Source: Vicinamibacterales bacterium (GTDB lineage Bacteria > Acidobacteriota > Vicinamibacteria > Vicinamibacterales > UBA2999). From it: a DNA stretch of 64,000 bases. The notes under the pieces were generated by a model. That model saw only the letters and a program-made list of their open reading frames with translations, did no database searches and was not told where the DNA came from. The stretch is taken from positions 14,573 through 78,572 of the forward strand of contig JBOGIW010000612.1 in NCBI GenBank assembly GCA_050748045.1, in the 5' to 3' direction. This document shows positions 20,589 through 46,600 of the stretch, piece by piece; position 1 is the first letter of the stretch, and every line of letters starts with the position of its first letter. A program made the position numbers and the translations under genes.

Positions 20589-23500
20589 ATGGCCACCACC
20601 TCTTCGGCTCGATCGGCGCGATACGAAGCGCAGGTCGCCGAAATCCTGGCTCCGCTCTTTGGGTGTTCGGAGGCAGACGTGGACCGGAGCTCGACGTTCC
20701 TCGAGCTCGGCGCCGATTCCCTGCTCCTCATGCGCGCGAGCCGCGCCATCGAGCAGCGCTTCGGCGTCACGATCCCGTTCCGGACGCTGATGGGGGGCCT
20801 GGGGACGGTGCGCGATCTCGCCGCGCATCTCACGACCAACATCCCTGCCGAGACGCCCGCCGCGGAGCTGGACGTGCCGCTGCCCGAAGCGCCGTCGGTC
20901 TCTCCCGATCCGCCGCGGTCCTCGACCTGGGCGGCCCACGGTGATCGTGGCGGCGCCTCGGATCTCGAACGGATCGTCAGCGATCAGCTCCACCTGATGT
21001 CGCGCCAACTCGAGCTGCTGCGGCGCGCACGAGCAGGGACGCACGACCGGCGGCAGGACCAGCCGAGCGCCGCTCCGACAGTCGAAGCGGCCGCTGCGCC
21101 GGACACCGCGACACCCGAAGCGTTCGGGCCGTTTCGTCCCGCGTCTCGGCAGACGATCTCGGCGATGACCGACCGCCAACAGCGGCACTTGTCCGACCTT
21201 GTCGCGCGCTACACAGCGAGGACGGCGGCGTCGAAGCAATTCGCCGCCGAGCATCGCCGTTGCCTCGCCGATCCGCGGGCGCCAGCCGGCTTCCAGCTCG
21301 CCTGGAAGGAAATGGTGTATCCGCTCGTGGGCAGCCGGTCGAAGGGCTCGCGGCTGTGGGACCTGGACGGCAATCAGTACGTCGATTTCACGATGGGGTT
21401 CGGCGTTCACCTCTTCGGCCATTCGCCGCCCTGCGTGACCAACGCCATCGCCGCGCAGCTCGCCGAGGGCCTGCACCTCGGACCGCAGACGGAACGAGCC
21501 GGCCGCGTCGCCGCCCTCCTGGCCGAGTTGACCGGCATGGAGCGCGTGGCCTTCTGCAACTCCGGCACGGAAGCGGTGATGGGCGCGATCCGGCTCGCGC
21601 GAGCCGCAACCGGACGTGCCCGCATCGCGGTCTTTTCCGGCGCGTATCACGGCACGTTCGACGGCGTACTCGGCCGCGAGCAGACCGTCGGCGGCGTCCG
21701 GCGCACCGCACCCGTCTCCATCGGGACGCCCCTCTCGCTGGTCGCCGACGTGATGGTCCTCGACTACGGCGATCCGGCATCGATCGACGCCGTTCGACAT
21801 GCCGCTGATCTGGCCGCGGTCCTCGTGGAACCCGTCCAGAGCCGCAACCTGTCGCTGCAGCCACGCGCGTTCCTCGAGGAACTGCGAGCGGTGACGGCGC
21901 AGGTCGGTGCGGCGCTCATCTTCGACGAGATCATCTCCGGCTTCCGCGTGCATCCCCGTGGATGCCAGGGCTGGTTCGGCGTGAGCGCCGACCTTGCGAC
22001 CTATGGAAAGGTCGTGGCCGGCGGCCTGCCGATCGGTGTGATCGCGGGGGCGGCGCCCTTCCTCGACCGGATCGACGGCGGCTCCTGGCAGTACGGCGAT
22101 CGGTCGTGCCCGACGGTTCCGCAAGCGATCTTCGCAGGCACCTTCTCGAAGAACCCGCTGACGATGGCCGTGGCCGAAGCGGTCTTGTCGGCGATCCGAG
22201 AGCAGAGTCCCGAGTTGCAGGAGTCGCTGAACCGTCGCACCGGCGCCCTCGCGGAGGCGCTCAACGCCATCTTCACGCGCTGGCGAGCGGCGATGCAGGT
22301 GCACCACTTCGGCTCGATGTTCCGGTTCGCGCGCCGGCCCGACGCTCGCTGGCTCGATCTGCTCTTCTACCACCTCGTCGACCGCGGCGCGTACATCTGG
22401 GAGGGGCGAGGCTGTTTCCTGTCGACCGCGCACGGTGACGCGGATGCGACCTTCCTCGTCGACGCCGTCGACGACAGCCTTCGCGAGCTCGAGCGGGAGG
22501 GCTTTCTCGGCGAGCGCCCGCTCCCGGCCCCGGCTTCCGCGCCGACGCACACGTTCGTTCCGATGGCGGCGTCGGCGAGGCAGATCTGGGTGCACTCGCA
22601 GATCAGCGAGCAGGCTTCCCTGGCGTACAACGAGCTGCTCTGCCTCCGGATGCACGGCGAGATCGATATCGACGCGATGCGGCAATCGGTCCGGCAGCTC
22701 GCCGAACGCCATGACGCGCTTCGAGCTACGGCGGACGAATCGGGTGAACGGTGGTGCGTGGCGGGCGAGGTGGCGGCCGACGTCGCTCGCATCGACCTGT
22801 CGGAACGATACGCCGGCGAAGGCGAGGTCGCCATGGCGGCGGTACTCGACGAGGCGATAGGCGAGCCGTTCGATTTGACCCGCGGGCCGCTCTTCCGCGT
22901 CCGGCTCTATCGTCTCGCCTCCGACCAGCATCTTTTTGCGCTCGTATTTCACCACCTGGCGATGGACGGATTGTCCGCTCAGTTGTTCCTGCAGGAGCTG
23001 CGGACGATGTACGTGGCGGCCATCGAGCGACGCCCGCATGCGCTGCCGCCGGCGAGGCAGTTCAGCGAGCGCGCCGGCGCCGCGCCGGGTCTCCATTCAT
23101 CGGCCGACGCCCTCCACGGAGAGCGCTTCTGGTCAGAGCTGTTGGATGGCGCGGCGCCGCTGCATCTGCCGCTCGACCGGCCGCGCCCGGCGATCGGCGT
23201 CAGCGACGGCCGGCGTGAGCGGATCACGACGCGTGGCGGGCTCGGCGCGGCACTCGCCGACGACGCGGCGCGCGCCAACTGCTCGCTCTTCGTCGTTCTC
23301 CTGTCGGCCTTCGTCGCCACGCTGCACCGCTTGTCGCGACAGAACGACTTCGTCGTGGGTGTGACCTCGATGGGCCGCGCGTTCGACGGCGACCAGCGCA
23401 TGATCGGTCACTGCGTCGATCTGCTGCCGCTGCGCAGCCGTGCGGCCGACGACCCGGAGCTCAGCGGGATCTTCGGGGCGATGAAGTCGCAGCTCCTCGA

Positions 23501-26500
23501 CGCGCAGCAGTACGCGCCCTGGTTGCATCCGAGCAGCGGACCCCGCCGACTCCCCGCCATTCGCGCAACGTTCAACATGGATCCGCCGGCTCGCGACGCC
23601 GGCAGCTCGCTCGACTTCGGGTCGATACACGTCACGAAGCTTCCGGGACGCGTTCGCCACGTCAAATTCGACGTGCAATGGAACGTCGCCGTCGTCCAGG
23701 ACGAGCTCTCGATCGTCTGCGACTACAACGCCCGCTGCTTCGACCCCTCGTCCATTCGATCGATGCTCGACACGTACGTGCAGATCTGCACGCTCGTCGC
23801 CCGGACGGCGCATGTTCGATTGTCCGAGCTGCCCCCCGTGACCGACGTCGGGCGGGAGCGGCTGATGGCCGAACGCGCCGCAACGGCGCGCTCCGTTCCG
23901 CACACGACCATTCCGGCCCTGTTCGAGACGCAGGTCCGGCGAACGCCGCATGCGGTCGCCGTGGCGTGCGGCGAAGAGCGGCTGACCTACGCACAGCTCG
24001 ACGAACGCGCGAATCGGCTCGCGCATCACCTGATCGCCTCGGGCGTCGGCCCAGAGCGGCTCGTCGGCGTGGCGCTGCCTCGCTCGACAAATCTCGTGGT
24101 GGCGATCGTCGCGACGTTGAAGGCTGGTGGAGCCTACGTGCCGATTGAGCCGGACTATCCCGACGCTCGGCTCGCGTTCATGATCGAAGACGCTCGCCCG
24201 AGCCTGGTGCTGACGACCGCGGCGATGCAGCCGCGGCTGCCGCCCGTGGCGCCGACGCTCGATCTCGACGACGAGGCAGTCCAGGACATGCTCGGGCGGC
24301 TGCCGTCGGCGCCGCCCGACCTCACCGTTCTCCCGCAGCATCCCACGTACGTGATCTACACGTCCGGATCCACCGGCGCACCGAAGGGTGCCACGAACAC
24401 ACACGAGGCGCTCGTCAACCGCTTGCTCTGGATGCAGCACGCGTACGGACTGAACGAAGGCGATCGCGTCCTGCAGAAGACGCCATACGGCTTCGACGTT
24501 TCGGTCTGGGAGTTCGTCTGGCCGCTGATCGTAGGGGCGCAGGTCGTGGTGGCCTCGCCGGGCGCGCATCGCGACCCGGTCGCGATTGCCGACGCCATCT
24601 GCGAGCACGGCGTCACGACGGTTCACTTTGTACCGTCGATGCTGCGCGAGTTCCTGCGGTCGCCCGCCGCACCGCGTTGCGTGACGCTGCGCCGCGTCAT
24701 CTGCAGCGGCGAGGCGCTCGCCGGCGATCTGCGGCAGCGGTTCTTCGACGCGCTTCCCGCGGTCGAGCTGCACAACCTCTATGGTCCGACTGAGGCGGCA
24801 ATCGACGTGAGCGCCTGGGCGTGCCGCCCCGACGAGGGCCATGCGGCGCCGCCGATCGGCCACGCGATCTGGAACACCGCACTCTACATCCTCGACGAGC
24901 ACCTCCAGCCGGTGCCGGACGGCGTCATCGGCGATCTCTACATCGTCGGCGCCGGGCTCGCGCGTGGATACCTGCGGCGGCCCGGGCTGACGGCCGACCG
25001 GTTCATCCCTGATCCGTACGCGGATGGAGCGCGGATGTATCGGACCGGCGATCTCGCCCGTCGACGGCAAGGCGGCGCGCTCGAGTTTGCCGGGCGTCGA
25101 GACGATCAGATCAAGCTGCGCGGAGTACGGATCGAGCCTGGCGAGATCGAGGTGGCGCTTCGCCGACATCCGGCGGTCCGTGACGCCGCGGTGGTGCCTG
25201 TCGCGAGCGCCGACGGCGGGAGTCGACTCGCGGCGTACGTCGCGCTCGATACCCGTGTAGCCGGAACGGCGCTGCGCCTGGCGGCGTGCGAACGGGAAGG
25301 CCGACTCTCCGCTGACGCGTGGGTCGAGCTTCCCAACGGCTTGCCGGTCGCGCACCTGACTCGCGGTGAAACGGAGTTCCTCTACGACGAGATCTTCGCG
25401 CGGCAGCGGTATCTGCGACACGGCGTGACGCTCTCGCCTGGCGCATGCGTGCTCGACGTCGGCGCGAACATCGGCATGTTCAGCCTGTTCGTCGGGCACC
25501 ACTACCCGGGCACGCGCATCTACGCATTCGAGCCGATCGCAGCGATCCGCAAGGTGCTGGAGCTCAACGCCGGAATTCACGGACTCGACGTGCGGGTGAT
25601 CGGTGCCGGCCTCGCGGAAGAAGAGGGCGAGCGAACGTTCACCTTCTACCCACGCATGTCGATACTCTCCGGTCAGTTCGCCGATGCGGATCAGGAGCGC
25701 GCCGTCGTCACCGCCTACGCACGGGGGCACGCCACCGGCTCGGCGGACGCGTTCGACGAGCTGCTCGACGACCGGCTGGCGGCGGAAAACGTGCGCTGCC
25801 GGGTGACCACCATCTCCGCGGCCCTCGCGGAGCAGCGAATCGAGCGGGTCGACCTCCTCAAGATCGACGCCGAGAAGAGCGAACTGGCGGTGCTTGACGG
25901 ACTTGCCGCAGACGACTGGCCGAAGATTCGACAGGTGGTCGTGGAGGTGCACGACGAGCGTGCGGCGCTCCCGACCATCCGTGCCCGCCTGCAGCAACAC
26001 GGCTTCCACGTCTCCGAGGAGTGCGACGACAGCCTGGCGGCGACGGGACTGACCACGTTGTACGCGGTACGCGAAGCCGGTCGCGAGAGCGAAGTTCCTC
26101 CGGCCCCCGCGACATGGAGCAGCCCGGCGCGTCTCATCGCGGACATGCGCGCCCGTCTCGGCGAGTCACTGCCGGAGATCATGATTCCCCCGGTCTTCGT
26201 GCTGCTCGATCGACTCCCAGTCAGCGCGAATGGAAAGCTCGATCGGCGGGCGCTGCCGCTGCCCGACCGCGGGTCGCTGCAGGCCGCGTCTCTCGTCCCT
26301 CCCCGCACGCCCACGGAGGAGGTGCTGGCCGCACTCTGGCGCGAGGTGCTCGGCATCGACGGCTTCGGAGTGCACGCCAATTTCTTCGATCTCGGCGGCC
26401 ATTCGCTGCTCGCCACACGTGTGACGGCCGGCATCCGCCGTCACTTCCACGTCCAACTCCGCCTCCACGTCGTGTTCGACCAACCGACGATCGCGCAGCT

Positions 26501-26579
26501 CGCCGAGGTCGTGGAGACGGCGTTGCTCGACGCGCTCGATGCGATCCCGGAGGAAGAGGCCGCACGGCTCGTGGGCTAG
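20589..26579 (+). CDS. Hybrid synthetase: ACP - class III aminotransferase (AMT) - C - A(Ser-like, interrupted by an FkbM-type methyltransferase) - T
   Basis: Carrier LELGADSLLLMRAS. AMT: GSRLWDLDGNQYVDFTMGFG, FCNSGTEAVMGAIRLAR, YGKVVAGGLPIG. C: HHLAMDGLS. A: YTSGSTGAPKG; code approx DVWHISLIDK. MT: VLDVGANIGMFSLF, inserted between the RGVRIEPGEIE core and the A10 core NGKLDRRALP. T: FFDLGGHSL. Confidence 0.9.
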   Translation: MATTSSARSARYEAQVAEILAPLFGCSEADVDRSSTFLELGADSLLLMRASRAIEQRFGVTIPFRTLMGGLGTVRDLAAHLTTNIPAETPAAELDVPLPEAPSVSPDPPRSSTWAAHGDRGGASDLERIVSDQLHLMSRQLELLRRARAGTHDRRQDQPSAAPTVEAAAAPDTATPEAFGPFRPASRQTISAMTDRQQRHLSDLVARYTARTAASKQFAAEHRRCLADPRAPAGFQLAWKEMVYPLVGSRSKGSRLWDLDGNQYVDFTMGFGVHLFGHSPPCVTNAIAAQLAEGLHLGPQTERAGRVAALLAELTGMERVAFCNSGTEAVMGAIRLARAATGRARIAVFSGAYHGTFDGVLGREQTVGGVRRTAPVSIGTPLSLVADVMVLDYGDPASIDAVRHAADLAAVLVEPVQSRNLSLQPRAFLEELRAVTAQVGAALIFDEIISGFRVHPRGCQGWFGVSADLATYGKVVAGGLPIGVIAGAAPFLDRIDGGSWQYGDRSCPTVPQAIFAGTFSKNPLTMAVAEAVLSAIREQSPELQESLNRRTGALAEALNAIFTRWRAAMQVHHFGSMFRFARRPDARWLDLLFYHLVDRGAYIWEGRGCFLSTAHGDADATFLVDAVDDSLRELEREGFLGERPLPAPASAPTHTFVPMAASARQIWVHSQISEQASLAYNELLCLRMHGEIDIDAMRQSVRQLAERHDALRATADESGERWCVAGEVAADVARIDLSERYAGEGEVAMAAVLDEAIGEPFDLTRGPLFRVRLYRLASDQHLFALVFHHLAMDGLSAQLFLQELRTMYVAAIERRPHALPPARQFSERAGAAPGLHSSADALHGERFWSELLDGAAPLHLPLDRPRPAIGVSDGRRERITTRGGLGAALADDAARANCSLFVVLLSAFVATLHRLSRQNDFVVGVTSMGRAFDGDQRMIGHCVDLLPLRSRAADDPELSGIFGAMKSQLLDAQQYAPWLHPSSGPRRLPAIRATFNMDPPARDAGSSLDFGSIHVTKLPGRVRHVKFDVQWNVAVVQDELSIVCDYNARCFDPSSIRSMLDTYVQICTLVARTAHVRLSELPPVTDVGRERLMAERAATARSVPHTTIPALFETQVRRTPHAVAVACGEERLTYAQLDERANRLAHHLIASGVGPERLVGVALPRSTNLVVAIVATLKAGGAYVPIEPDYPDARLAFMIEDARPSLVLTTAAMQPRLPPVAPTLDLDDEAVQDMLGRLPSAPPDLTVLPQHPTYVIYTSGSTGAPKGATNTHEALVNRLLWMQHAYGLNEGDRVLQKTPYGFDVSVWEFVWPLIVGAQVVVASPGAHRDPVAIADAICEHGVTTVHFVPSMLREFLRSPAAPRCVTLRRVICSGEALAGDLRQRFFDALPAVELHNLYGPTEAAIDVSAWACRPDEGHAAPPIGHAIWNTALYILDEHLQPVPDGVIGDLYIVGAGLARGYLRRPGLTADRFIPDPYADGARMYRTGDLARRRQGGALEFAGRRDDQIKLRGVRIEPGEIEVALRRHPAVRDAAVVPVASADGGSRLAAYVALDTRVAGTALRLAACEREGRLSADAWVELPNGLPVAHLTRGETEFLYDEIFARQRYLRHGVTLSPGACVLDVGANIGMFSLFVGHHYPGTRIYAFEPIAAIRKVLELNAGIHGLDVRVIGAGLAEEEGERTFTFYPRMSILSGQFADADQERAVVTAYARGHATGSADAFDELLDDRLAAENVRCRVTTISAALAEQRIERVDLLKIDAEKSELAVLDGLAADDWPKIRQVVVEVHDERAALPTIRARLQQHGFHVSEECDDSLAATGLTTLYAVREAGRESEVPPAPATWSSPARLIADMRARLGESLPEIMIPPVFVLLDRLPVSANGKLDRRALPLPDRGSLQAASLVPPRTPTEEVLAALWREVLGIDGFGVHANFFDLGGHSLLATRVTAGIRRHFHVQLRLHVVFDQPTIAQLAEVVETALLDALDAIPEEEAARLVG
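21290..22510 (+). other. Aminotransferase (GSA-aminomutase-like) domain (approximate)
   Basis: See the motifs above. The arrangement is the same as the AMT of iturin/mycosubtilin-type loading modules. Confidence 0.75.
25260..26100 (+). other. FkbM-family methyltransferase insertion inside the Ser-type A domain (approximate)
   Basis: LTRGETEFLYDEIFARQRYLRHGV..VLDVGANIGMFSLFVGHHYPG..IYAFEP...LLKIDAEKSELAVLDG. Confidence 0.75.
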
Positions 26580-26599
26580 ACCATCCACAGGACGAGACA

Positions 26600-35765: not shown

Positions 35766-35794
35766 TTCTCGCGCTGACCTTCCGAGGCCGAGCG

Positions 35795-38359
35795 ATGGCT
35801 GTTGATCGCGCAGCGTTCGTCGCCGATGCGCCACTCGACGCGGCACGCGAGCGGACCACCTCCGCGCCGCTGCACGTGTGGGAACACGAACGGCCGCTGC
35901 CGGGCGGCGACTGGGTCATCTGGCGTCCGACGGTCCTTCGCGGCACCGGCTTCCCGGTGTCGACCATGGCCGGTCTGGCGGGGATGCAAGCGCCATCGGC
36001 CGCGGACGAGTACTCCGACACTCGGGCCGACGTGATCCGTTTGCGCCGGCTCGCACTTGCGCAGATCGGCCAGGATCTGCGGGCGTGTCCTCCGAGCGCC
36101 CGCGCCGCGCTCCGTGCCAGGCGGCGTCGTATTCGTCAGGGGAGAATCGCGCGCGACGCCACGACTCACATCGAACGGGCGCTGGCATCCGCGACGGAGG
36201 CGCGCGTCGCGGCGCACGCTCGGTTGATGGAGGTGTACCGGGCGGAGACGCAGCTCATCGACGCGCGTCTTGCCGGGATCCTGGCCGACCCCCGCTTTCG
36301 CGAAGCAGTGCGGTGGCAAAATCCGCGCGCGCTCTCGCTGATCGATCGCAGGTTTCAAGCGCCGGCAGGCGCACGCGCCGACCGTCGCGCCGCAGGCGAT
36401 CTCGTCGCGATGCTCATTCAGCGCTACGCGCTCAAGAACGACAGCATCGGGTTCTTTGGACCGGTGGGGTGGGGCTCCCTTTCCGAGCAGGAGATGACGG
36501 TCGACATCTCGCCGGGTGCCGGCTTGCTCGCCCGCCGCGCGGTGTACTTCGAAGGGTGGTGCATCGACGCGCTCGCCGACGCGCTCGACGCGCATCCATC
36601 GGTCAGGTGCTGGACCGCGCCCCGTCTCGCCGGCGGCGTCTGGCAGGGAGAGAACGGCGTCGTGCACGTGCCTCTGGTTGGGCAGGTGGCCGTATCGGAA
36701 GGCGAGCGCCGTGTCCTGGCGTTGTGCGACGGGGAGCGCTCCGCGCGGGAGATCGCCGACGTCGTGCTCCGCCACCCTGAATCGGATCTGCGTTCCGAGG
36801 ACGACGTGTTTGCCGCGCTTCGTGCTCTCGTCGACAGACGGGTGCTCGTCTGGAGACTGGACGTCGCTCCTCAACTTCATCCCGACCACGAGCTCCGCAG
36901 GCGTCTCCATCGCATCGGCGATCCCCGGTTGCGCCAGGAGTGCTTCGCCGCGCTCGACGCGCTGGTCGAAGCGCGCGACGCGGTTGCGCGCGCCTCAGGC
37001 GATCCCGACGCACTCGACGAGAGGCTCACCGCGCTGAACACGACGTTTACGGGTCTCACAGGTCGCGCGCCGACGCGCCGCGTCGGACAGATGTATGCCG
37101 GCCGCACGCTGGTATACGAAGACTGCCGCCGTGCCGGCCGGGTCACCCTCGGCGCTGCATTCCTCGCGCGGCTCGGTCCGCCTCTCACGCTTGTCCTCGA
37201 GAGCGCCCGATGGGTGGCGGCGGAGCTCGCACGTGGATTCCGGGTGCAGATGCGGCAGTGTTATGCCGCGCTCGCGCGTGAACGGCGGGATGCGGTCGAC
37301 GCGCACGAGTTCTATACACGAGTCACGCAGATCCCGCTCGACGAACGGATGGCGCGCATTCGCGACGTGGAACGGCGATTCCGTGAGCGGTGGCAGTTCG
37401 CGCTCGGCGTGGACGGAGAGCCGCGCCGAGTGAGCCGATCGGTGGACCAGATCGCGCTCCGCGCCCGCGAGGCCTTCCTCTCGCGCTCGCCGCTATGGAG
37501 CAGGGTGAGGTTCCTCAGTCCGGACGTGCTGGTGGCCGCCGATGGCCCGGAAGCATTCCGCCGTGGCGACTTTCACTGCGTGCTCGGCGAGATCCACAGC
37601 GGCAACGGACTCCTCTGGTCCGCGCTGGCTTCGCAGCATCCCGATCCGCAGGAGCTCGCGGACGCGGTCGAGCGCGATGCGCGCGACGTCACGCCTATCG
37701 TGACCCAGGTCCTCAAGAGCGACTGGTCGGCCCGGCTGAACGTCGCGGCGCGTCCCCCGTGCGGCTGGCGGTACGAGTTTCACGACGATCGACCGAGCCA
37801 GCCCGGTTGCCGACCGATGCCGGCGGCAATGCTCGTTCCATCGGATGACGGCCTCACGGTGACGATGCGGACGCGCGACGGCAACCACGAGTTCGACGCG
37901 ATCGAGTTGTTCGGTCTGCCGCTGTGCTGGGAGGTGGACAGCGTCCTCAAGCAATACCTCCCGGACGCACCTCACGTGCCCCGCGTGACGATCGGCGCCT
38001 TGACTATCGCGCGCGAGCGTTGGTGCGCCACCCGCGACGAGCTGCCGTTCGTCACCGAGCCCGACCGTGCGGCGCGCTTCGCTGCGCTGCGCGCGTGGGC
38101 GCGCGGCCTCGGGCTCCCGCGACGCGTGTTCTACAAGTTCCCGCGCGAGCGCAAGCCGTGTTATCTGGACTTCGACAGCCCGCTGTACAGCGATCTCTTC
38201 CTGAAAGGCGTGCGCAGCCTCGAAGAGGGCATCGCGGTTCGCCTCGACGAGATGTTCCCGGGAATCGCCGAGACATGGCTCGCAGACGGCACCGGCGACC
38301 GGTACACCAGCGAGTTCCGGTTCGCCACTCGACTGGCGAGTCCCGGGTGCCTGGCATGA
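35795..38359 (+). CDS. Small LanB-like protein: lantibiotic-dehydratase N-terminal (glutamylation / aminoacyl-tRNA-using) domain only, no elimination domain (PEARL-like)
   Basis: 854 aa. WVIWRPTVLRGTGFP, ADPRFREAVRWQNPRAL and QRYALKNDSIGFFGPVGWG resemble the conserved 'dp.f.eAl..aSp.L' and '..Y..R...R.TPFGLFAG' blocks of LanB N-terminal domains. The length fits the ~800-aa N-domain. No SpaB_C-like C-terminal region follows. ATGA overlap with the next gene. Confidence 0.6.
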   Translation: MAVDRAAFVADAPLDAARERTTSAPLHVWEHERPLPGGDWVIWRPTVLRGTGFPVSTMAGLAGMQAPSAADEYSDTRADVIRLRRLALAQIGQDLRACPPSARAALRARRRRIRQGRIARDATTHIERALASATEARVAAHARLMEVYRAETQLIDARLAGILADPRFREAVRWQNPRALSLIDRRFQAPAGARADRRAAGDLVAMLIQRYALKNDSIGFFGPVGWGSLSEQEMTVDISPGAGLLARRAVYFEGWCIDALADALDAHPSVRCWTAPRLAGGVWQGENGVVHVPLVGQVAVSEGERRVLALCDGERSAREIADVVLRHPESDLRSEDDVFAALRALVDRRVLVWRLDVAPQLHPDHELRRRLHRIGDPRLRQECFAALDALVEARDAVARASGDPDALDERLTALNTTFTGLTGRAPTRRVGQMYAGRTLVYEDCRRAGRVTLGAAFLARLGPPLTLVLESARWVAAELARGFRVQMRQCYAALARERRDAVDAHEFYTRVTQIPLDERMARIRDVERRFRERWQFALGVDGEPRRVSRSVDQIALRAREAFLSRSPLWSRVRFLSPDVLVAADGPEAFRRGDFHCVLGEIHSGNGLLWSALASQHPDPQELADAVERDARDVTPIVTQVLKSDWSARLNVAARPPCGWRYEFHDDRPSQPGCRPMPAAMLVPSDDGLTVTMRTRDGNHEFDAIELFGLPLCWEVDSVLKQYLPDAPHVPRVTIGALTIARERWCATRDELPFVTEPDRAARFAALRAWARGLGLPRRVFYKFPRERKPCYLDFDSPLYSDLFLKGVRSLEEGIAVRLDEMFPGIAETWLADGTGDRYTSEFRFATRLASPGCLA

Positions 38360-40137
38360 CCGTCACCAATCGCTTCGAAGCCCGGGCCGCGGCGTCTCCG
38401 GAGGCCGTTGCGCTGATCGCCAACGATCGGACGTGCACGTATCGCGCCCTCAACGCGCGGGCCAATCGGCTGGCGTGGCATCTCCGCGAGCGCGGCGTCG
38501 GACCGGAGACGATTGTCGGCATCTGCATCCCACGAAGCATCGATTTCGTCGTGGCGCTGCTCGCGGTCGCGAAAGCCGGGGGTGCGTACCTCGCCATCGA
38601 CGTCGATCATCCACGCCAGCGAGCCGAGTGGATGCTGCGCGACACCGGCGCGCGTCTTCTCCTGGCGACGGCCGACACCCGCGGACTGGTCTGCGCGGCG
38701 CCCGTGATCGTGCTGACCGAGCTCGATGAGGTCCTGGACCATCAGCGCCACGACAATCCGGCCTCGCCTGCCAGCCCCGATGGCCTCTTCAAGGTCGTTT
38801 ATACGTCGGGCAGTACAGGTCGACCCAAAGGCGTGCTGGTGCCGATGCGGGCCGTCCTGCACCGACTCGATGCGATGGCGGCCCGCTTCCCGTTCGTCAA
38901 CGGCGATGTTGCGCTGCTCCATCGATCGTCGATGATCGCCGGATCGTCGTGGGATGCGCTCGGCCCGCTCATCGCCGGCGTGCCGACGCTCGTGATGCCC
39001 ACGTTCGACCCGATGGATGCCGCCGTGTGGGAGCTGGTTGCGAGGACGCGTGTCTCGCATCTCGCCGCCGGACCATCCTTGTGGCACCTCATCCTGACCA
39101 TGGCGGAGCGGTCGGCCGTCCGCTGGGATGCGCTGCGCATGGTAATCGTCGGCGGCGAGCGTGCCAGCCGCAAGCTCGTGACACGTTTCGCTCGCGCCTT
39201 CCCGCACGCGTCTCTCGTCAACATCTATGGGCTGACCGAGAGCATCTATCCGTGCGGCTGCGACGCAACGCTCACCGCCGCCTGCGGATCGTACGTTCCG
39301 GCGGGAGGGCCGTTCCCGGACGTGTCCGTCGCCGTCGTCGACGACGCCGGACGCGCGCAGCCCCATGGTACGTCCGGACATATCTGCCTCGCAGGCCCGG
39401 GCACGGCACGCGGATATCTGCACGCGCCGAGCCTCACCGCAGAGAAATTCGCCCCTAATCCCTCGGGCGCCACGCCCGGCGAGCGCATGTTCAGGACCGG
39501 TGACCGGGGCCGGTGGCGCGCCGACGGGGTGCTCGAGGTGCTCGGCCGCCGCGACAATCAGGTGAAGGTGCGCGGAACACGCGTCGAGCTCGCCGAAGTA
39601 GAAGCGGTGCTGTCGGCGTCGCCCGGCGTCAGCGAAGCGGCCGTCACGAGCCACACGGCGGACGAGGGCGAATCGCGCATCGTCGGATACGTCGTGCCCG
39701 AGCCTGGCGTGTCGATTTCCATCCGCGAGCTGCGCGCGTCACTTGCACGCGCGCTGCCGGCGGGGGCCGTTCCCGCGGCGTTCGTCGTGCTCGCAGAGAT
39801 GCCGATCACCTCACAGGGCAAGGTCGATCGCGCGCGGCTGCCGGCGCCGGCGACCACGGGGGCCGACGACAGACACAGCGGCCCGGCGCCGCGCACGAAC
39901 ACCGAACGGGCCATTGCCCGGATCTGGCGGGAGCTGCTGAACGTACCTCAGGTCGGTGTGCACGACGACTTCATCAGTCTCGGCGGCACGTCGCTGGCCG
40001 GCATGTACGTCGCGTCGCGGATCCGCCAGGAGTTCGGAATCAGTTTGTCGTTTGATACGGTGCTCGGCGCACCGGGACTCGACGCGCTCGCCTCGTATGT
40101 CGACGCCGCGCAGGAGCGGAAGGCCCACGGCGCATGA
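38356..40137 (+). CDS. Stand-alone A-T didomain with a non-amino-acid (carboxylic/aryl/keto acid-type) adenylation pocket
   Basis: YTSGSTGRPKG, FRTGDRGRW, KVRGTRVELAEVE, QGKVDRARLP. T: FISLGGTSL. The position equivalent to Asp235 (FDxS) reads IAGSSWD, so Ala replaces Asp. The A5 core reads YGLTES instead of YGPTE. Confidence 0.85.
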   Translation: MTVTNRFEARAAASPEAVALIANDRTCTYRALNARANRLAWHLRERGVGPETIVGICIPRSIDFVVALLAVAKAGGAYLAIDVDHPRQRAEWMLRDTGARLLLATADTRGLVCAAPVIVLTELDEVLDHQRHDNPASPASPDGLFKVVYTSGSTGRPKGVLVPMRAVLHRLDAMAARFPFVNGDVALLHRSSMIAGSSWDALGPLIAGVPTLVMPTFDPMDAAVWELVARTRVSHLAAGPSLWHLILTMAERSAVRWDALRMVIVGGERASRKLVTRFARAFPHASLVNIYGLTESIYPCGCDATLTAACGSYVPAGGPFPDVSVAVVDDAGRAQPHGTSGHICLAGPGTARGYLHAPSLTAEKFAPNPSGATPGERMFRTGDRGRWRADGVLEVLGRRDNQVKVRGTRVELAEVEAVLSASPGVSEAAVTSHTADEGESRIVGYVVPEPGVSISIRELRASLARALPAGAVPAAFVVLAEMPITSQGKVDRARLPAPATTGADDRHSGPAPRTNTERAIARIWRELLNVPQVGVHDDFISLGGTSLAGMYVASRIRQEFGISLSFDTVLGAPGLDALASYVDAAQERKAHGA

Positions 40138-41015
40138 TCGCGAATCCCTCTGCTGAACATCAGGAGGCCGCGTGCGCGCCGGCTGTTCTTTCCGGCGCCG
40201 GCGAGCTGACCTGTCGCGATCTCAGGAGCCACCAGGACCTGGAGAGCGCGGCCGCGCTGGAAACCGAGATCTGGGGGTACACGGATCGTCTCGACGCGCT
40301 GCCACCCTCGCTTCTCTCGGCCTCGATCCGCGTCGGGGGCCTCCTGCTGGGCGCGTTCGACGCGGATCGCCTCGTGGGATTCGTCTACTCGTTTCCCGCG
40401 ATTCGGAACGGCGAGACGATCCACTGGTCGCATCGGCTTGGCGTCGCAGAAGCATACAGGAGCACGGGCGTCGGGCACTGGTTGAAGCTGGAGCAGCGGA
40501 GGCGTGTGGCCGCGCTCGGTCTCAACCTCGTTGCCTGGACCTACGACCCTATGCTGGCGGCGAACGCGCACCTGAACCTGACGAAATTGCGCGCCACGGC
40601 GGCGCGATACGAAACTGACGTGTACGGCACCTCGAGCAGCCCGCTGCATGCCGGAATCCCGACGGATCGGCTCGTCGTGGACTGGCGGATCGGCGGCGCG
40701 ACCGGCGAACCCGACGCGGATCGAAGTCGTCGGCGCCACACCGCCATCTGCGACGCCCCGGTCGTGAACAGGACGCGACGCGGTCGCGTCTGGCCTGCAT
40801 GCGCCGCCCTCGAGCTCTCGTGTCCGTCAGATACCGTGCGCGTCGAGATTCCACTCGGGTTCACCCAGATGCTGCGCCGCGATCGCGGGCTGGCGCTGCA
40901 GTGGCGACTGGCGACGCGCGCGGTCTTCACGACGTATTTCGGTGCCGGATTCACTGCGGTCGACTTCGCCGTCTGTCGCGACCGCGGGCTCGGATGGTAC
41001 CTGTTGACGCGCTGA
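40134..41015 (+). CDS. GNAT-fold acyltransferase-like protein (COG3375-like), function unknown
   Basis: LETEIWGY...PSLLSASIRVGGLLLGAFD..LVGFVYSFPA...SHRLGVAEAYRSTGVGHWLKLEQRR.ALGLNLVAWTYDPMLAANAHLNLTKL resembles the 'predicted GNAT superfamily acetyltransferase' family. ATGA overlap with the previous gene. Confidence 0.45.
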   Translation: MIANPSAEHQEAACAPAVLSGAGELTCRDLRSHQDLESAAALETEIWGYTDRLDALPPSLLSASIRVGGLLLGAFDADRLVGFVYSFPAIRNGETIHWSHRLGVAEAYRSTGVGHWLKLEQRRRVAALGLNLVAWTYDPMLAANAHLNLTKLRATAARYETDVYGTSSSPLHAGIPTDRLVVDWRIGGATGEPDADRSRRRHTAICDAPVVNRTRRGRVWPACAALELSCPSDTVRVEIPLGFTQMLRRDRGLALQWRLATRAVFTTYFGAGFTAVDFAVCRDRGLGWYLLTR

Positions 41016-41053: not shown

Positions 41054-43867
41054 ATGACCGTGCCGCCGCAGGACGGGCGTGAGCCCGAGCGAGAGTGTGA
41101 CATCGCCGTGATCGGCATGGCCGGGAGGTTTCCCGGCGCAAGGGACGTCGACGAGCTGTGGCGCAATCTCTCGAACGGCGTCGAGTCGATTTCGGAACTG
41201 ACGTCGTCGGACCTCGTCCAGGCCGGCGTGCCGCGAGCGGACCTCGAGCATCCCAACTATGTCCGCGCGCGCGGGCTGCTGGCGGACGCCGAGTGCTTCG
41301 ACGCGGCGTTCTTCGGAGTCACGCCGGCGGAAGCCACGGTCATGGACCCGCAGCACCGCCTGCTGCTGGAGTGTGCATGGGCGGCACTGGAGCACGCGGG
41401 GTACGCCCCGGACAGCGTCCCAGGGGTCGTCGGCGTCTACGCCGGCGCGAGTGCCAGCGATCACCGCGCCAGGCTGGGATCTCGCCCCGAGCTATGCGAT
41501 CTCCTCGGCGGCTACCTGGTGCAGGTTGGCAACGACGTCGATTTCCTCACGACGCGGATCTCGTACAAGCTGAACCTCAAGGGACCGAGCATCGCGGTGC
41601 AGACATCGTGCTCGACCTCCCTCGTCGTCGTCCATCTCGCATGCCAGGCCCTGTTGAACGGCGAGTGCGACCTGGCGCTGGCGGGCGGCGTGAACGTATC
41701 GACCCTGCGGCGCATCGGCTATCTCTATCAGGAGGCCGGGATTCGATCGCCCGACGGACACTGCCGGCCGTTCGACGCAGGCGCGAAGGGAATGGTCAGC
41801 GGTGCAGGGCTCGGCCTGGTGGTGATCAAGCCGTTGCGCGCCGCGCGGCGCGACCGCGATTTCGTTCACGCGGTCATCAAGGGTTCCGCCGTGAACAATG
41901 ACGGCCGCGCAAAGGTGAGCTACACGGCGCCGAGCGTGGACGGGCAGGCCACGGCCATTCGCGAGGCGCTGTCATGGGCCGCCGTCGATCCCGCGACGAT
42001 CGGCTATGTCGAAGCGCACGGCACCGGCACGCATCTCGGCGATCCCATCGAGATCGCGGCGCTCACCGACGTCTTTCGCGCCTCCACCTCGCGGCGCTCG
42101 AAGTGCCCCGTCGGGTCGATCAAGGCGAACATCGGCCACCTGTCGGCCGCGGCGGGCGTCGCCGGCCTCATCAAGACGATTCTGATCCTGAAACATGGAT
42201 GCGTCCCCCCGAACCCGTACTTCCGGGCGCCGAATCCGGAAGCGCGGCTCGACGAGAGTCCCTTCTACGTCAACCAGGGGGCGGTGGACTGGCCGGCGAC
42301 GGCCCATCCGCGCCGCGCCCTGGTCAGCGCCCTCGGCATTGGCGGCACGAATGCGCACTTGGTGCTCGAGGAAGCACCGGTGCACGCGCCGACAACCCCC
42401 TCGAACACCTGGCACGTCCTGACTTTGTCTGCCCGCACGGCATCGGCTCTCGATGCGATGACCCAGAACCTCTCGGGGCACCTCACCTCCGCGGCTGCGC
42501 CCTCGTTGCCGGATCTCGCCCACACGCTCCACGCTGGTCGGACCGGCTTTTCCTACCGCCGCGCGATCACATGCCGCGACATCGACGGTGCCGTGCGGGC
42601 GCTTCGCGGTGAGGAGGGCGCACGTGCATGGACGGGCGTCGCCTCGGAGGAGCCTCCGCCCGCCGCATTCATGTTTCCTGGCGTCGGCACGCAGTACGTG
42701 GGCATGGCGGCGGAGCTGTACCGCGAAGATGCGCTGTTCCGACAGGAGCTGGATCGATGTTTCGACGTCCTCGCTCGTCACTCGGACGTGAACTTCCGGG
42801 ACGTGCTCTACCGGCCTGACTCCCAGACCGATCCCACGACGATCGATCGCGCTGTCGTCGTGAATCCGCTCGTGTTCGCCGTCGCCTATGGCGTCGCGAT
42901 CCGCTGGACGCAGTGCGGAATTCGTCCGGCCGCGCTCATCGGCCACAGCCTGGGCGAGTACGCAGCCGCCACGCTGGCGGGCGTGTTCACGCTCGAGCAT
43001 GCGCTCGAGCTCATGTTGACGCGCGGCCGCCTCATCGAGCGCGTCCCTCCTGGCGCGATGCTCGCGGTACCTCTCTCCGAGGAGGAGACGCTTCCGTATC
43101 TCAACGACGACGTCTCGCTTGCATCCGTGAACGCGCCGACGGCGTGCATCCTGTCGGGGGCGCCTGCGGCAATCGCCGCAGTCGAGGCCGCACTGCACCA
43201 GCGTGGCACCGCGTGCCGGGCGCTGCGCTTCCCTCACGCTCCTCATTCCGCGATGATGGACCCCATCCTTGGCGAGTTCGCCGACCACGTTCGCGCGGCG
43301 GCACCGAAAGCTCCACGAATTCCACTGGTGTCGAGCGTCACCGGCACGTGGATCACGCCCGCGCAGGCTGAGGACCCGCACTACTGGGCCTCGCACCTTC
43401 GCCGCACGGTACGATTCGCCGAAGGACTTCGGTGCGTGTTGAGCAATCCGCGGCAGCTCCTCATCGAGATGGGGCCCGGCCGCAGCCTGAGCCGGCTCGT
43501 GAAGCGGCAGGGGGCGGGCGCGGCCAAACGACAGGTCATCCCCACGCTTTGCGCACCCGACGATGACACACCCGATCGGGAGCTGTTCGCGCGCGGGCTC
43601 GCCCGCTGCTGGGCGGCTGGCGTGCGGGTCGAGTGGACGCACTACACCGGCGCCGAGCCGCGGTACCGCGTGCCGCTGCCGACGTATCCATTCGAGCGAA
43701 CGCGGTATGCGCTCGAGACCAGCACGGGCGCGCCCTCGCCAAGCGATGCGAGCGGCCATACCGCGCGCACGGCCGACGATCGAGGGGCGCCTGGGTCGGA
43801 TCTGGAACGCGTCATCACCGACCAGCTTCGTCTGATGTCGGCGCAGCTCGACGCACTCCAGGGCTGA
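41054..43867 (+). CDS. Type I PKS fragment: KS-AT only (no ACP, KR, DH)
   Basis: KS: IAVIGMAGRFPGA, VQTSCSTSLVVVHLAC, EAHGTGTHLGDPIE, KANIGHLSAAAG. AT: GHSLGEYAAATLAG, FPHAPHSAMM (HAFH-like, suggesting malonyl). C-terminal tail GSDLERVITDQLRLMSAQLDALQG. AGGAG 8 nt upstream. Confidence 0.9.
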   Translation: MTVPPQDGREPERECDIAVIGMAGRFPGARDVDELWRNLSNGVESISELTSSDLVQAGVPRADLEHPNYVRARGLLADAECFDAAFFGVTPAEATVMDPQHRLLLECAWAALEHAGYAPDSVPGVVGVYAGASASDHRARLGSRPELCDLLGGYLVQVGNDVDFLTTRISYKLNLKGPSIAVQTSCSTSLVVVHLACQALLNGECDLALAGGVNVSTLRRIGYLYQEAGIRSPDGHCRPFDAGAKGMVSGAGLGLVVIKPLRAARRDRDFVHAVIKGSAVNNDGRAKVSYTAPSVDGQATAIREALSWAAVDPATIGYVEAHGTGTHLGDPIEIAALTDVFRASTSRRSKCPVGSIKANIGHLSAAAGVAGLIKTILILKHGCVPPNPYFRAPNPEARLDESPFYVNQGAVDWPATAHPRRALVSALGIGGTNAHLVLEEAPVHAPTTPSNTWHVLTLSARTASALDAMTQNLSGHLTSAAAPSLPDLAHTLHAGRTGFSYRRAITCRDIDGAVRALRGEEGARAWTGVASEEPPPAAFMFPGVGTQYVGMAAELYREDALFRQELDRCFDVLARHSDVNFRDVLYRPDSQTDPTTIDRAVVVNPLVFAVAYGVAIRWTQCGIRPAALIGHSLGEYAAATLAGVFTLEHALELMLTRGRLIERVPPGAMLAVPLSEEETLPYLNDDVSLASVNAPTACILSGAPAAIAAVEAALHQRGTACRALRFPHAPHSAMMDPILGEFADHVRAAAPKAPRIPLVSSVTGTWITPAQAEDPHYWASHLRRTVRFAEGLRCVLSNPRQLLIEMGPGRSLSRLVKRQGAGAAKRQVIPTLCAPDDDTPDRELFARGLARCWAAGVRVEWTHYTGAEPRYRVPLPTYPFERTRYALETSTGAPSPSDASGHTARTADDRGAPGSDLERVITDQLRLMSAQLDALQG

Positions 43868-43908: not shown

Positions 43909-45336
43909 ATGCCAGACAAGTTCGAAGACGAGTGCGGCGTCTTTGGCGTGTACAACCACCCCGGCGCCGTCTCGCTTACCACGATCGGCCTCCTGTCGCT
44001 TCAGCATCGCGGGCACGAAAGCGCCGGGGTGGCGTGCAGCCGCGATGGCGTGCTCCATTGCGTTCGCGCCAAAGGGTGGGTGTCCCACCTCGCCGACCGG
44101 CACCTCGGCGGCGTCAGCGGATCCGCCGCGATCGGGCACGTCAGATACTCGACGTGCGGCGACAGCTCGCTCGCCAACGCCCAGCCTCTCGTCGTGGCCA
44201 CGCGCGACGGACACCTCGCGCTCTGTCACAACGGAAACATTGTGAACGCGCACGACATACGGACGACACTGCGCGATTCGGGCGCGACCTTCGACGGCGA
44301 CGGCGACACCGAGGTCGTTGCGCGACTGCTCGCACGACGATGGTCGGAGCTTCCGGAGCACGAGGCGTTCCGCAAGACGTTCGAGATGGTGCGCGGCGCC
44401 TACTCGATCGTCGTCCTGACCAGCGATCGCATGTACGCTCTGCGCGATCCGCTGGGCATTCGTCCGCTGAGTCTCGGCCGCATCGGCGACGCAATCGTGA
44501 TCAGTTCGGAGACGTGCGGGTTCGATGCCATTGGCGCCACACACGTGCGCGACATTCGTCCAGGCGAGCTGCTCGTCGTCGGCCGCGCGGGCGTCCGCTC
44601 CTTCCAATTCCAGACTCCCGCGCCGCTCTCCGCGCAATGTGTGTTCGAGTTGATCTACTTCGCCCGGCCCGACAGCGTGACGTTCGGTCACAGCGTCGCG
44701 GCGGTGCGCATGGCGCTCGGCCGAAGGCTCGCCCAGGAGCAGCCAGCCGACGCCGACGTCGTCGTGCCGATTCCCGATTCCGGCCTCTATTGCGGTATCG
44801 GCTATGCCCGTGGCACCGGCATCGGATGCGAGCTGGCGCTCGTTCGCAACGCGCACGTCGGCCGAACCTTCATTCGGCCCGACGTAGCGGAACGGCGCGC
44901 CACCATCGCCGCCAAGTACAACGTGATTCGCGATCTCGTCGCAGGCCGGAGGGTGGCGCTGGTCGATGACTCGCTCGTCCGCGGCTCCACGTGCGAATCC
45001 ATCGTCGCACGAGTCCGAGAGGCCGGCGCGCGCGAGGTTCACGTGCGAATCGCGAGTCCGGAAACGATCGGACCGTGCTACTTCGGCGTCGACACACCCG
45101 ACGAGGGCGACCTCTTCGCAACCGGTCGATCGGTCGCGGAGATGGCGCGGCTCCTCGGAGCGGACTCTCTGGCCTTTCTCAGTCTGGATGGACTGCTCCG
45201 TGCGGTTGCCGGTGCCACCGGCGGCTACTGCTCGGGCTGCTATACCCGCCGATATCCGATCGATCCGGACGCATCGCCGCGGACGGCACGATCCGTGGCG
45301 GCGCCGGCCCGTCTGTATACGGCGTGCACGAGGTAA
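43909..45336 (+). CDS. purF: Amidophosphoribosyltransferase (glutamine PRPP amidotransferase), B. subtilis-type with propeptide and Fe-S Cys ligands
   Basis: MPDKFEDE|CGVFGV (propeptide plus catalytic Cys1), LQHRGHESAG, PRTase motif VALVDDSLVRGST, Cys ligands in GPCYFGVDTP and GYCSGCYT. Confidence 0.9.
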   Translation: MPDKFEDECGVFGVYNHPGAVSLTTIGLLSLQHRGHESAGVACSRDGVLHCVRAKGWVSHLADRHLGGVSGSAAIGHVRYSTCGDSSLANAQPLVVATRDGHLALCHNGNIVNAHDIRTTLRDSGATFDGDGDTEVVARLLARRWSELPEHEAFRKTFEMVRGAYSIVVLTSDRMYALRDPLGIRPLSLGRIGDAIVISSETCGFDAIGATHVRDIRPGELLVVGRAGVRSFQFQTPAPLSAQCVFELIYFARPDSVTFGHSVAAVRMALGRRLAQEQPADADVVVPIPDSGLYCGIGYARGTGIGCELALVRNAHVGRTFIRPDVAERRATIAAKYNVIRDLVAGRRVALVDDSLVRGSTCESIVARVREAGAREVHVRIASPETIGPCYFGVDTPDEGDLFATGRSVAEMARLLGADSLAFLSLDGLLRAVAGATGGYCSGCYTRRYPIDPDASPRTARSVAAPARLYTACTR

Positions 45337-45343
45337 GTCTCGA

Positions 45344-46600
45344 GTGATCGCGGCTCCAGACGACGTGACCGGCGATTGGATCGTCGTGATGACCTGCCAC
45401 GGCGCCAGCGACGTCATGCGCATGACGCTGCAGATGCACGGCGATCGCGCGACCGCGTGCCTTGGCGGCTGTGCTTTCGAAGGTCGCGCGAGCGGCTCGC
45501 GCCTGGAGCTTCGGACGCCGGATGGTGCAACACCCGCCGCTCGGATCAGCGGGACCTTCGAGCGGCACGCGTTGTCGGGAGAGTATGTCGTCGGCAAAAC
45601 GCGCTGGACCTGGTCGGCCACGCGACCCGCCGGACGTGCCGCAGGGGCGTCGCGGACGCACGTGTTCGCGCCCACAACCTTTCATCGGATGTTTTCCGGA
45701 TCGATCCCGCCCGCATTGCACATTCGGTGCGGCGACCGCGTGAAGACCTGGACGCTCGACTCGTCGGGGATCGATGCCGACGGAGCACGGCGATCGCGAC
45801 CCGGTAACCCTCAAACCGGCCCCTTCTACGTCGAGGGGGCCGTTCCCGGTGACACGCTGGCGGTGACCTTCACGCGCATGCGCTTGAACCGCGATACGGC
45901 AACGTCGCGACGGAGGATCTGGAAGGACGCGGTCACGGCGGCGTATATCGAGAGCCGGCGCCCGCTTGCCGATCCCGACAGCGCGTGGCTGCTCGACCGC
46001 GCGAAGGGAGTGGCGCGGCCGGCGCAGCCGACTCCCGCGCTCGCCGGATATGCGGTGCCGCTCCAGCCGATGCTCGGGTGCGTAGCCGTGGCGCCGCCGT
46101 TCGACATGGCGGTCACGTCGCAGCATCCCGGGACGTTCGGAGGCAACATCGACTATGCCGGCATCCGTGAAGGCGTGACGGTGTACCTGCCGGTGTTTCA
46201 GATCGGCGCGCTCCTGTTCATCGGAGACGGCCACGCGGCCCAAGGCGACGGCGAGGTCACCGTCAGCGCGCTCGAGACGTCGATGGACGTGGAGTTCGTC
46301 GTCGACGTGCTCCCAGGGCGAACGCTGGCGACACCGTGCGCCGAAGACGCCGAATGCCTGATGGCGATAGGAATCGAGCGATCGCTCACGAGGGCGCTGC
46401 AGAGCGCCACCACCGAAATGGCGCGCTGGCTCGAACGCGACTACGGGCTCGACCGCGAAGAGGCCGCGACGGTGCTAGGGACGGCGCTGCGCTATGACAT
46501 CGCGCAAGTCGTCAATCCCCATCCGAGCGTCGTGGCGAAGCTGCCCAAGGCGGTGATGGCCCGGGTCCGCAAACCGCCTGTCAACGGTGAAAGGCGATGA
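45344..46600 (+). CDS. Acetamidase/formamidase-family amidohydrolase
   Basis: NPQTGPFYVEGAVPGDTLAV, GTFGGNIDY, LFIGDGHAAQGDGEV. The N-terminal ~100 aa are unusual. The start is uncertain (GTG 45344, 8 nt after purF). The stop overlaps the next NRPS start (ATGA). Confidence 0.75.
   Translation: MIAAPDDVTGDWIVVMTCHGASDVMRMTLQMHGDRATACLGGCAFEGRASGSRLELRTPDGATPAARISGTFERHALSGEYVVGKTRWTWSATRPAGRAAGASRTHVFAPTTFHRMFSGSIPPALHIRCGDRVKTWTLDSSGIDADGARRSRPGNPQTGPFYVEGAVPGDTLAVTFTRMRLNRDTATSRRRIWKDAVTAAYIESRRPLADPDSAWLLDRAKGVARPAQPTPALAGYAVPLQPMLGCVAVAPPFDMAVTSQHPGTFGGNIDYAGIREGVTVYLPVFQIGALLFIGDGHAAQGDGEVTVSALETSMDVEFVVDVLPGRTLATPCAEDAECLMAIGIERSLTRALQSATTEMARWLERDYGLDREEAATVLGTALRYDIAQVVNPHPSVVAKLPKAVMARVRKPPVNGERR

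Follow-up and report, generated by a model that had tools for sequence, protein, structure and literature searches.

A stretch of 64,000 nucleotides (nt) from a Vicinamibacterales (Acidobacteriota) metagenome-assembled genome, hereafter the window, encodes a beta-amination module that is divided between separate genes of a hybrid polyketide synthase (PKS) and nonribosomal peptide synthetase (NRPS) assembly line. A short amphipathic helix occurs twice in this split module, once at the extreme C-terminus of a ketosynthase-acyltransferase (KS-AT) protein and once, 22.8 kb away, in the linker between the acyl carrier protein (ACP) and the aminotransferase (AMT) domain of a second protein. The two copies represent one conserved element, and comparison with homologous sequences suggests, with about an even chance of being right, that it is a like-with-like docking device tethering the KS-AT to an ACP supplied in trans. 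A dimerisation or docking helix that re-associates the split parts was one of two explanations offered by an earlier, sequence-only reading of the window, and it is the one that comparison favours, since both partners carry the helix in 8/8 other split systems where both are visible, while fused enzymes have one copy.

The motif shared by the end of the KS-AT and the ACP-to-AMT linker, as first noticed from the sequence, is confirmed: 14 of 23 core residues and 49 of 69 nt are identical (coordinates in Table 1). The KS-AT open reading frame (ORF) ends in ...DDRGAPGSDLERVITDQLRLMSAQLDALQG, with the stop codon (43865-43867) directly after the helix, and the corresponding segment of the ACP-AMT ORF (aa 118-148, nt 20940-21032) reads GDRGGASDLERIVSDQLHLMSRQLELLRRA. 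The similarity of the DNA, also part of the earlier observation, is recovered by blastn, in which the tail region matches a single site in the rest of the window (75 bp, 74.7% identity, E 3e-7) and all other matches have E >= 0.025. A six-frame scan of the 64-kb window with a regular expression finds exactly two copies of the motif. Both are also recognized by a profile hidden Markov model (HMM) built solely from 21 foreign ACP-to-AMT linkers and applied to 939 six-frame segments of the window. Scores are 42.7 bits (E 1.2e-12) for the linker copy and 30.4 bits (E 8.7e-9) for the KS-AT tail; no third segment among the 939 is significant, the next best reaching 4 bits.

Both copies belong to a family with the consensus S-x-L-E-R-[IVL]-[IVM]-A-Q-Q-L-x-[LIV]-M-S-x-Q-L-E-L-L-R-G, and the logo of 169 unique instances reads S-x-[LV]-E-[RQ]-[IVL]-[IVM]-A-Q-Q-L-x-[LIV]-M-[SA]-[QR]-Q-L-E-[LMV]-L-R-G. 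In heptad notation, hydrophobic residues fill positions d, e and b; the two invariant Gln, both at position a, lie at the centre of this face. The pattern xLERIxxQQLxLMSxQLELLRG recurs between ACP and AMT among homologues of the ACP-AMT N-terminus, and a 33-position profile, searched against 1.84 billion representative proteins, has 223 matches at E <= 1e-3. The best 150 of these 223 matches were annotated with the window's own domains. The helix lies right behind a carrier protein in nearly all of them, and the AMT is the next domain in 82. Proteins that begin with the ACP number 55 in this set of 150, against 43 with the fused order KS-AT-ACP-helix-AMT. The ACP-AMT protein of the window (MGH9350163.1) is identical to P0127 (100%).

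The helix also occurs apart from any AMT. It stands at the N-terminus of the condensation-adenylation (C-A) proteins P0153, P0204 and P0223, and between ACP and C in P0207, which has the order KS-AT-ACP-helix-C; further helix-first proteins are P0160 and P0217. Its presence in proteins without AMT (P0153, P0204, P0223, P0207) therefore makes it an element of the PKS-to-NRPS junction and not a part of the AMT fold. That the motif might be the conserved N-terminal helix of AMT domains, as had been considered earlier, is not borne out: it is a separate linker helix, ending about 45 residues before the start of the crystallised MycA AMT region (6KFM, 6KFU; TDRQQRHL, aa 194). Longer, divergent Q-rich helices are present in the ACP-to-AMT linkers of Bacillus BamA, a Nostoc synthase, a Ralstonia megaplasmid synthetase and many fused metagenomic synthases, and P0268 is a tail of the long helix variant.

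Neither helix region has a match in Pfam or NCBIfam, even at E <= 10, and the helix profile finds only a chance match in the PDB (calmodulin, E 0.94). A 51-column alignment of the motif, too short and noisy for such a search, returned nothing at E <= 10 from a database of 5.8 billion proteins. A generic low-complexity linker, which had been named as a possible trivial origin of the similarity, is ruled out, as repeats make up only 2 of the best 150 profile matches and nothing else scores in the window. P0129 and P0238 are tandem low-complexity repeats (SRQLEVISWQLEVIS...), unrelated to synthases and false positives of the short profile.

Models calculated with AlphaFold2 (AF2) predict an isolated helix on each side. 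In the ACP-helix-AMT model (660 aa, 44-sequence alignment, mean predicted local distance difference test (pLDDT) score 83.5), the linker copy is a single helix (pLDDT 69-87) between two segments scoring below 50 (Table 1). In a 422-aa construct comprising AT and tail, a helix (H400-421, pLDDT ~70) follows 38 disordered residues (362-399, pLDDT < 50), which correspond to aa 877-914 of the KS-AT. As modelled, isolated helices on disordered tethers are typical of docking elements.

The number and position of helix copies differ between fused and split systems. Fused KS-AT-ACP-helix-AMT proteins have one copy in the 43 representatives mentioned above, with a single exception that has a tandem copy, and the fused loci of a metagenome scan that score with the profile also have a single helix. 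Among split systems, a targeted search revealed at least 12 lineages of proteins with the order AT, post-AT linker, helix, stop. Most of the core is kept in these tails (Q, L, M, Q, L, L), with some conservative substitutions, and the 30-60 residues that precede it are unconserved. The AT fragments P0173, P0179 and P0249 are examples: a LPTYPF linker, 30-60 unconserved residues, the helix and a stop codon, with no ACP. On contigs found through the tail, the next gene downstream encodes ACP-helix-AMT in L079, L080, L082, L083 and L084; L081 is different, the gene after the tail-bearing one being unrelated and convergent. On contigs found from the ACP-first side, a helix-ending KS-AT lies immediately upstream in L085 and L086 (999 and 995 aa), and the metagenome scan provided a further split pair, L119. 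The tails and partner linkers are compared in Table 2.

Table 2. KS-AT tails and linker helices of their partners in split systems (an ellipsis marks sequence that continues)
System	KS-AT tail	Partner linker
Window	SDLERVITDQLRLMSAQLDALQG (stop)	SDLERIVSDQLHLMSRQLELLRR
L079	LFERVMSQQLQVMARQLEVLT...	LFERVMSQQLQVMERQLEVLR
L080	LYERIVARQLQLMSRQLEALGRSR (stop)	ALERIMARQLEVMERQLEL
L082	ALERIMSEQLQLMAQQLEVLS...	LFERVLSQQLQVMARQLEVLK
L083	EEDVIHQQLQIMSRQLELLSQS (stop)	TLEQILAQQLQIMQQQLEVMR
L084	RRLIERQVQVMTQQLEMLRR...	GLEAVLFQQLDLMAAQLRLLQ
L085	SVERIVAQQLEIISAQLDVLRE...	PLERIMAQQLQLMSRQLDMLR
L086	VQERIMGQQLEVMSRQLAMLRN...	LIERIMAQQLEVMAQQLEALR
L119	EEDLIKQQLQIISKQLELLNQF (stop)	SIEQIMAQQLQIMAQQLEVMR

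A genome scan with the KS-AT covered 76 loci (<= 52% identity), in none of which does the helix directly follow the AT. Among these loci, the only proteins to end just past an AT are the KS-AT-KS-AT proteins of L041 and L048; their loci contain no AMT partner, and these proteins, which serve as a control, are helix-free. Several apparent splits were discarded: P0006 and P0029, at first taken for AMT proteins lacking an ACP, are frameshifted fused genes, and L107 is a frameshift artefact. A cultured example of a split system was not found among the plasmid ACP-AMT homologues inspected, those of Rhizobium, Variovorax and Ralstonia all being fused and a Burkholderia record being unannotated; tblastn of the KS-AT tail against plasmids gave chance matches only.

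The proposed mechanism builds on what is directly established, namely the family membership of both copies, the predictions of isolated helices and the finding that the tail copy goes strictly with split systems; from such sequence comparisons we infer the contact between the helices, their stoichiometry and their orientation. KS and fold-type-I (class-III) aminotransferase domains are obligate homodimers. A fused enzyme with the order KS-AT-ACP-helix-AMT-C-A-T (T, thiolation domain), the common form, has one helix per chain on flexible tethers, just past the ACP. In modules divided between AT and ACP, the KS-AT bears a helix of its own, at the site to which the ACP was once joined. Two KS-AT tail helices and the two linker helices of the ACP-AMT dimer could then assemble into a small four-helix bundle, for which the broad d-a-e-b hydrophobic face with its buried Gln layers would be suited. 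Such a bundle would re-create the lost covalent link by tethering the KS-AT non-covalently beside the trans ACP, and would keep this ACP within reach of AT, KS and AMT. During catalysis, the A-T protein would load the starter unit, the AT would malonylate the trans-supplied ACP, and the KS would condense the A-T-bound starter onto malonyl-ACP; the AMT would then turn the beta-keto intermediate into a beta-amino acyl chain, to be passed on by the downstream C domain.

Several observations weigh against docking. The structural evidence consists of monomer models of each partner. Fused enzymes keep the helix, which must therefore have a function for which one copy is enough. All comparison split pairs come from metagenome contigs, and in these eight systems the KS-AT and ACP-AMT genes are adjacent (KS-AT upstream), in contrast to the 23 kb that separate them in the window. 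Finally, the preference of tails for their own linkers is slight. Mean identity is 0.597 for tail and own linker against 0.532 for permuted pairs (p = 968/40320 = 0.024), and p becomes 0.08 without L079 and 0.12 without L079 and L082. Since similarity within pairs is only weakly above that between systems, a pair-specific recognition code is not demonstrated; what pairing signal is left could come from shared ancestry and amino-acid usage. In L079 (166-882 and 1093-4851; soil metagenome), tail VPRSAILFERVMSQQLQVMARQLEVLTYCQ and linker VPKSAILFERVMSQQLQVMERQLEVLRYCQ are identical at 27/30 positions, far closer than other pairs, and this near-identity suggests gene conversion or recent duplication.

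Two other functional roles of the helix have to be weighed against docking. Each copy could be an autonomous homodimerisation or stabilising element of its own chain, required by each half of a split module, the two copies never touching. The single helix per chain of fused enzymes, the isolated amphipathic helix given by AF2 and the lack of convincing pair-specific covariation all agree with such a role. We nevertheless hold it to be unlikely, because the KS and the fold-type-I aminotransferase already dimerise obligately, the KS-AT proteins of L041 and L048, which end past the AT and have no AMT partner, do without the helix, and the tail is located exactly where the ACP was attached. Somewhat more doubtful still is a common third surface, such as a groove on the AMT dimer, the ACP or the downstream C domain, to which both helices would bind and so recruit the KS-AT. 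The wide conserved face formed by d, a, e and b, in which position a is invariant Gln, is also suited to a helix-in-groove contact, and the helix is always near an ACP-to-AMT or ACP-to-C junction; against this, the AF2 monomer model leaves the helix between disordered segments. Moreover, the downstream domain may be AMT or C (P0153, P0207), so that no single receptor domain is constant, which counts against a third surface.

The other explanation given by the sequence-only reading, that the shared motif is a remnant of fission or rearrangement, finds no support. The KS-AT tail would then have no function and would simply survive from the event, duplication or fission, by which a fused ancestor gene was divided, a possibility we rate as very improbable. 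Duplication as such does occur: P0126, a 597-aa fragment, has AT-ACP followed by a Q-rich repeat plus helix (DSPLATLIQQQLNLMQQQLDLLRG) twice in tandem, so that this region is evidently able to duplicate in this way, and the near-identical copies of L079 would fit a recent duplication, or gene conversion, in their lineage. The core positions of the tails are retained, fully or conservatively, in at least 12 divergent lineages, next to linkers that are unconserved, and the window tail retains every invariant position of the family. Nor is it closer to the local linker copy than to some foreign ones, linkers such as that of P0047 matching it equally well or better. The two window copies are 71% identical in DNA over a stretch confined to ~75 bp, with agreement at 13/23 third codon positions in a genome whose GC content at third positions (GC3) is ~0.8, and the same codon is used at only 8 of the 14 shared residues. 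Recent duplication within the window is ruled out by this DNA evidence (~75 bp, 13/23). In addition, only 34 residues separate LPTYPF from the helix, too few for a degraded ACP.

The genes of the split module are listed in Table 1, and Pfam confirms that A-T, KS-AT and ACP-AMT-C-A-T are encoded apart, at 38.3, 41.0 and 20.6 kb, as had been read from the sequence. The 20589-26579 product contains, in order, PP-binding, Aminotran_3, Condensation, AMP-binding, Methyltransf_21 and PP-binding, and the class-III aminotransferase thus comes directly after the ACP, whose phosphopantetheine site (GADSL) begins at aa 41. The AMT aligns with MycA (6KFM/6KFU) at E 2e-144 over aa 194-644, starting at TDRQQRHL, and the lysine that binds pyridoxal 5'-phosphate is kept in a YGK motif (aa 472-474), DLATYGKVVAGGLPIG being aligned with MycA DLVTYGKIIGGGQPLG. 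The KS-AT matches ketoacyl-synt, Ketoacyl-synt_C, KAsynt_C_assoc and Acyl_transf_1 but no carrier protein. Its ORF has an identified ribosome-binding site and start codon, and inspection by eye places the active-site Cys in TSCSTS, recognizes EAHGTGT and NIGHL as His motifs and finds GHSLGE in the AT. The KS-AT may work in trans on the ACP of the ACP-AMT protein.

Table 1. Features of the split beta-amination module in the window (GSA, glutamate-1-semialdehyde; MT, methyltransferase)
Feature	Position	Strand	Basis
ACP - linker helix - AMT - C - A (embedded FkbM-type MT) - T gene	20589..26579	+	1996 aa, MGH9350163.1, Pfam
N-terminal ACP, aa 11-85	20619..20843	+	PP-binding match; AF2 four-helix ACP, pLDDT 84-96
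Tether from ACP to helix, aa 91-122 disordered	20859..20960	+	AF2 pLDDT < 50
Internal Q/L/M-rich amphipathic helix copy, aa 125-148, core SDLERIVSDQLHLMSRQLELLRR	20961..21032	+	AF2; foreign-only HMM
Tether from helix to AMT, aa 149-182, disordered	21033..21134	+	AF2 pLDDT < 50
Class-III (GSA-aminomutase-like) aminotransferase, aa 194-644	21168..22520	+	Pfam Aminotran_3; MycA AMT 6KFM/6KFU alignment
Stand-alone A-T didomain gene, presumed starter-unit loader	38356..40137	+	Pfam AMP-binding, AMP-binding_C, PP-binding
KS-AT gene, C-terminal helix, no ACP	41054..43867	+	937 aa, MGH9350173.1, Pfam
Post-AT linker end (LPTYPFE, aa 875-881) and low-complexity tether of ~33 aa	43676..43795	+	AF2 pLDDT < 50
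C-terminal helix copy of KS-AT, aa 915-937, SDLERVITDQLRLMSAQLDALQG	43796..43864	+	AF2; foreign-only HMM

A thioesterase (TE)-bearing NRPS with the order C-A-T-C-A-T-TE (13188-20564, +) directly precedes the ACP-AMT gene, whereas KS-AT and A-T are encoded 18-23 kb downstream. The genes thus do not follow the presumed order of assembly. The FkbM-type MT of the ACP-AMT protein (Methyltransf_21, E 6.5e-15; 25455-26009, aa 1623-1807) is inserted in its A domain, between AMP-binding and the last part of AMP-binding_C, and a second A domain with an embedded methyltransferase is encoded by the ORF at 29218-32634. In the A-T protein (38356-40137), the position of the FDxS motif, normally occupied by the Asp that binds the alpha-amino group, reads IAGSSWD by eye; this suggests that the substrate of the loader may be an acid that lacks an alpha-amino group. 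The A-T and KS-AT genes flank an ORF of 293 aa (40134-41015, +) with a coding-like GC3 of 0.80; it has no Pfam match at E <= 1e-3, and a GNAT-like stretch, HWSHRLGVAEAYRSTGVGHWLKLEQRR, is seen by eye. Accessory genes unusual for an NRPS/PKS cluster are found at 35555-38359, 26021-28591, 43909-45336 and 44966-46600 (all +), their products being a protein with a lantibiotic-dehydratase N-terminal domain, a radical SAM protein, a glutamine amidotransferase of PurF type with an N-terminal propeptide (MPDKFEDEC...) and a formamidase-like protein. In many relatives, a luciferase-like monooxygenase stands between AMT and C (L085, 5025-10778; L086, 10001-17467; L087, Ralstonia), a domain that the ACP-AMT protein of the window does not contain; in the relatives it fits 2-hydroxy-3-amino acyl products.

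Docking elements set which subunits of a megasynthase cooperate, and have a central place in the redesign of polyketide and peptide assembly lines. Classes catalogued so far are located at chain termini, mostly at ACP/KS or peptidyl carrier protein (PCP)/C junctions, and splits within a module are seen as typical of trans-AT systems (PMC9113145). If the docking reading is true, a one-helix, like-with-like element adds a new and highly compact design principle, by which a cis KS-AT is brought to an internal site beside a trans ACP, and accounts for the assembly of many split beta-amination modules in soil bacteria. Because split proteins are at least as common as fused ones in the best 150 matches (55 vs 43), the docking pair would be widespread and possibly portable. 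For annotation, the helix is also an easily scored signature by which KS-AT and ACP-AMT genes far from each other can be matched, for instance those of the window, 23 kb apart. Neither the helix motif, nor an AMT linker of this kind, nor docking at an AMT junction is described in the literature searched (open-access papers and preprints), and an earlier description elsewhere is possible. That the window reveals a docking system of cis-AT PKS/NRPS hybrids so far uncatalogued, in which a Gln-layered helix duplicated onto the KS-AT C-terminus pairs with an internal post-ACP helix, seems to us a little short of an even chance. Judged from sequence comparison, the helix is most likely an uncatalogued form of a type of docking element that is already known.

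Among known systems, the module is most readily compared with MycA, ItuA and BamA of Bacillus (mycosubtilin, iturin, bacillomycin), in which an ACP is likewise followed by a class-III aminotransferase and then by C-A-T. The sequence-only reading went further and saw in A-T / KS-AT / ACP-AMT-C-A-T the reproduction of a MycA polypeptide. This stands for the domain logic of beta-amination and for the AMT itself (6KFM, E 2e-144), and does not stand for the loader and the placement of the AT. In MycA, a single polypeptide, the KS makes a beta-keto intermediate, loading is by a fatty-acyl ligase and the AT is provided in trans by FenF (PMC3039948). The window, by contrast, has three genes, an NRPS-type A-T loader and a cis KS-AT; its chemistry is therefore MycA-like but its layout is not. 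BamA, the MycA orthologue, also has a Q-rich helix in the ACP-to-AMT linker, TLEKIIASQNQLIQDALQAQLNSFNLL. The Bacillus helix is a divergent long form, scoring -0.5 bits with the short-form profile, and the crystallised MycA constructs exclude it.

Another relative is encoded by the Ralstonia solanacearum megaplasmid, a synthetase of the type FAAL-KS-AT-ACP-AMT-... (FAAL, fatty acyl-AMP ligase), which from its genomic context is probably the ralsolamycin/ralstonin synthetase. It has the same order KS-AT-ACP-helix-AMT, with the linker helix SSLERLLSQQLDALSQLTARQLALLQGG, and differs from the window in that it is fused, with one helix copy, a long variant with extra residues, and no KS-AT tail.

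With respect to docking, class 1 elements of cis-AT systems (DEBS2/DEBS3, PikAIII/IV) associate through tethered helices of two homodimeric subunits that form a four-helix bundle (PMC9113145). The element of the window resembles them in principle, as helices of two dimers would form a bundle. Class 1 domains operate at intermodular ACP/KS junctions, where the C-terminal partner follows the ACP and an N-terminal coiled coil precedes the KS, whereas the window element would act at an intramodular AT|ACP junction, through an internal acceptor helix and one helix per chain, both partners being of the same sequence family. Split modules of trans-AT systems (VirA/VirFG, macrolactin Mln) are reconnected by four-helix-bundle elements of ~25 residues (PMC9113145). 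These use helix-turn-helix pairs at both termini, unlike the window element with its one helix per chain (as predicted by AF2), its cis-AT module and one internal partner. A 2021 review of docking places class 1 and class 2 elements at ACP/KS junctions, four-helix-bundle and DHD elements at the split modules of trans-AT systems, and COM, PAX and beta-hairpin elements in NRPSs and hybrids; according to this review, cis-AT junctions mostly lie between modules, and its text nowhere mentions "aminotransferase" (PMC9113145). In the known docking layout both partners are terminal, and the pair described here falls outside it, with a donor at the C-terminus of the KS-AT and a proposed acceptor that is internal, at aa 125-148 of the ACP-AMT protein.

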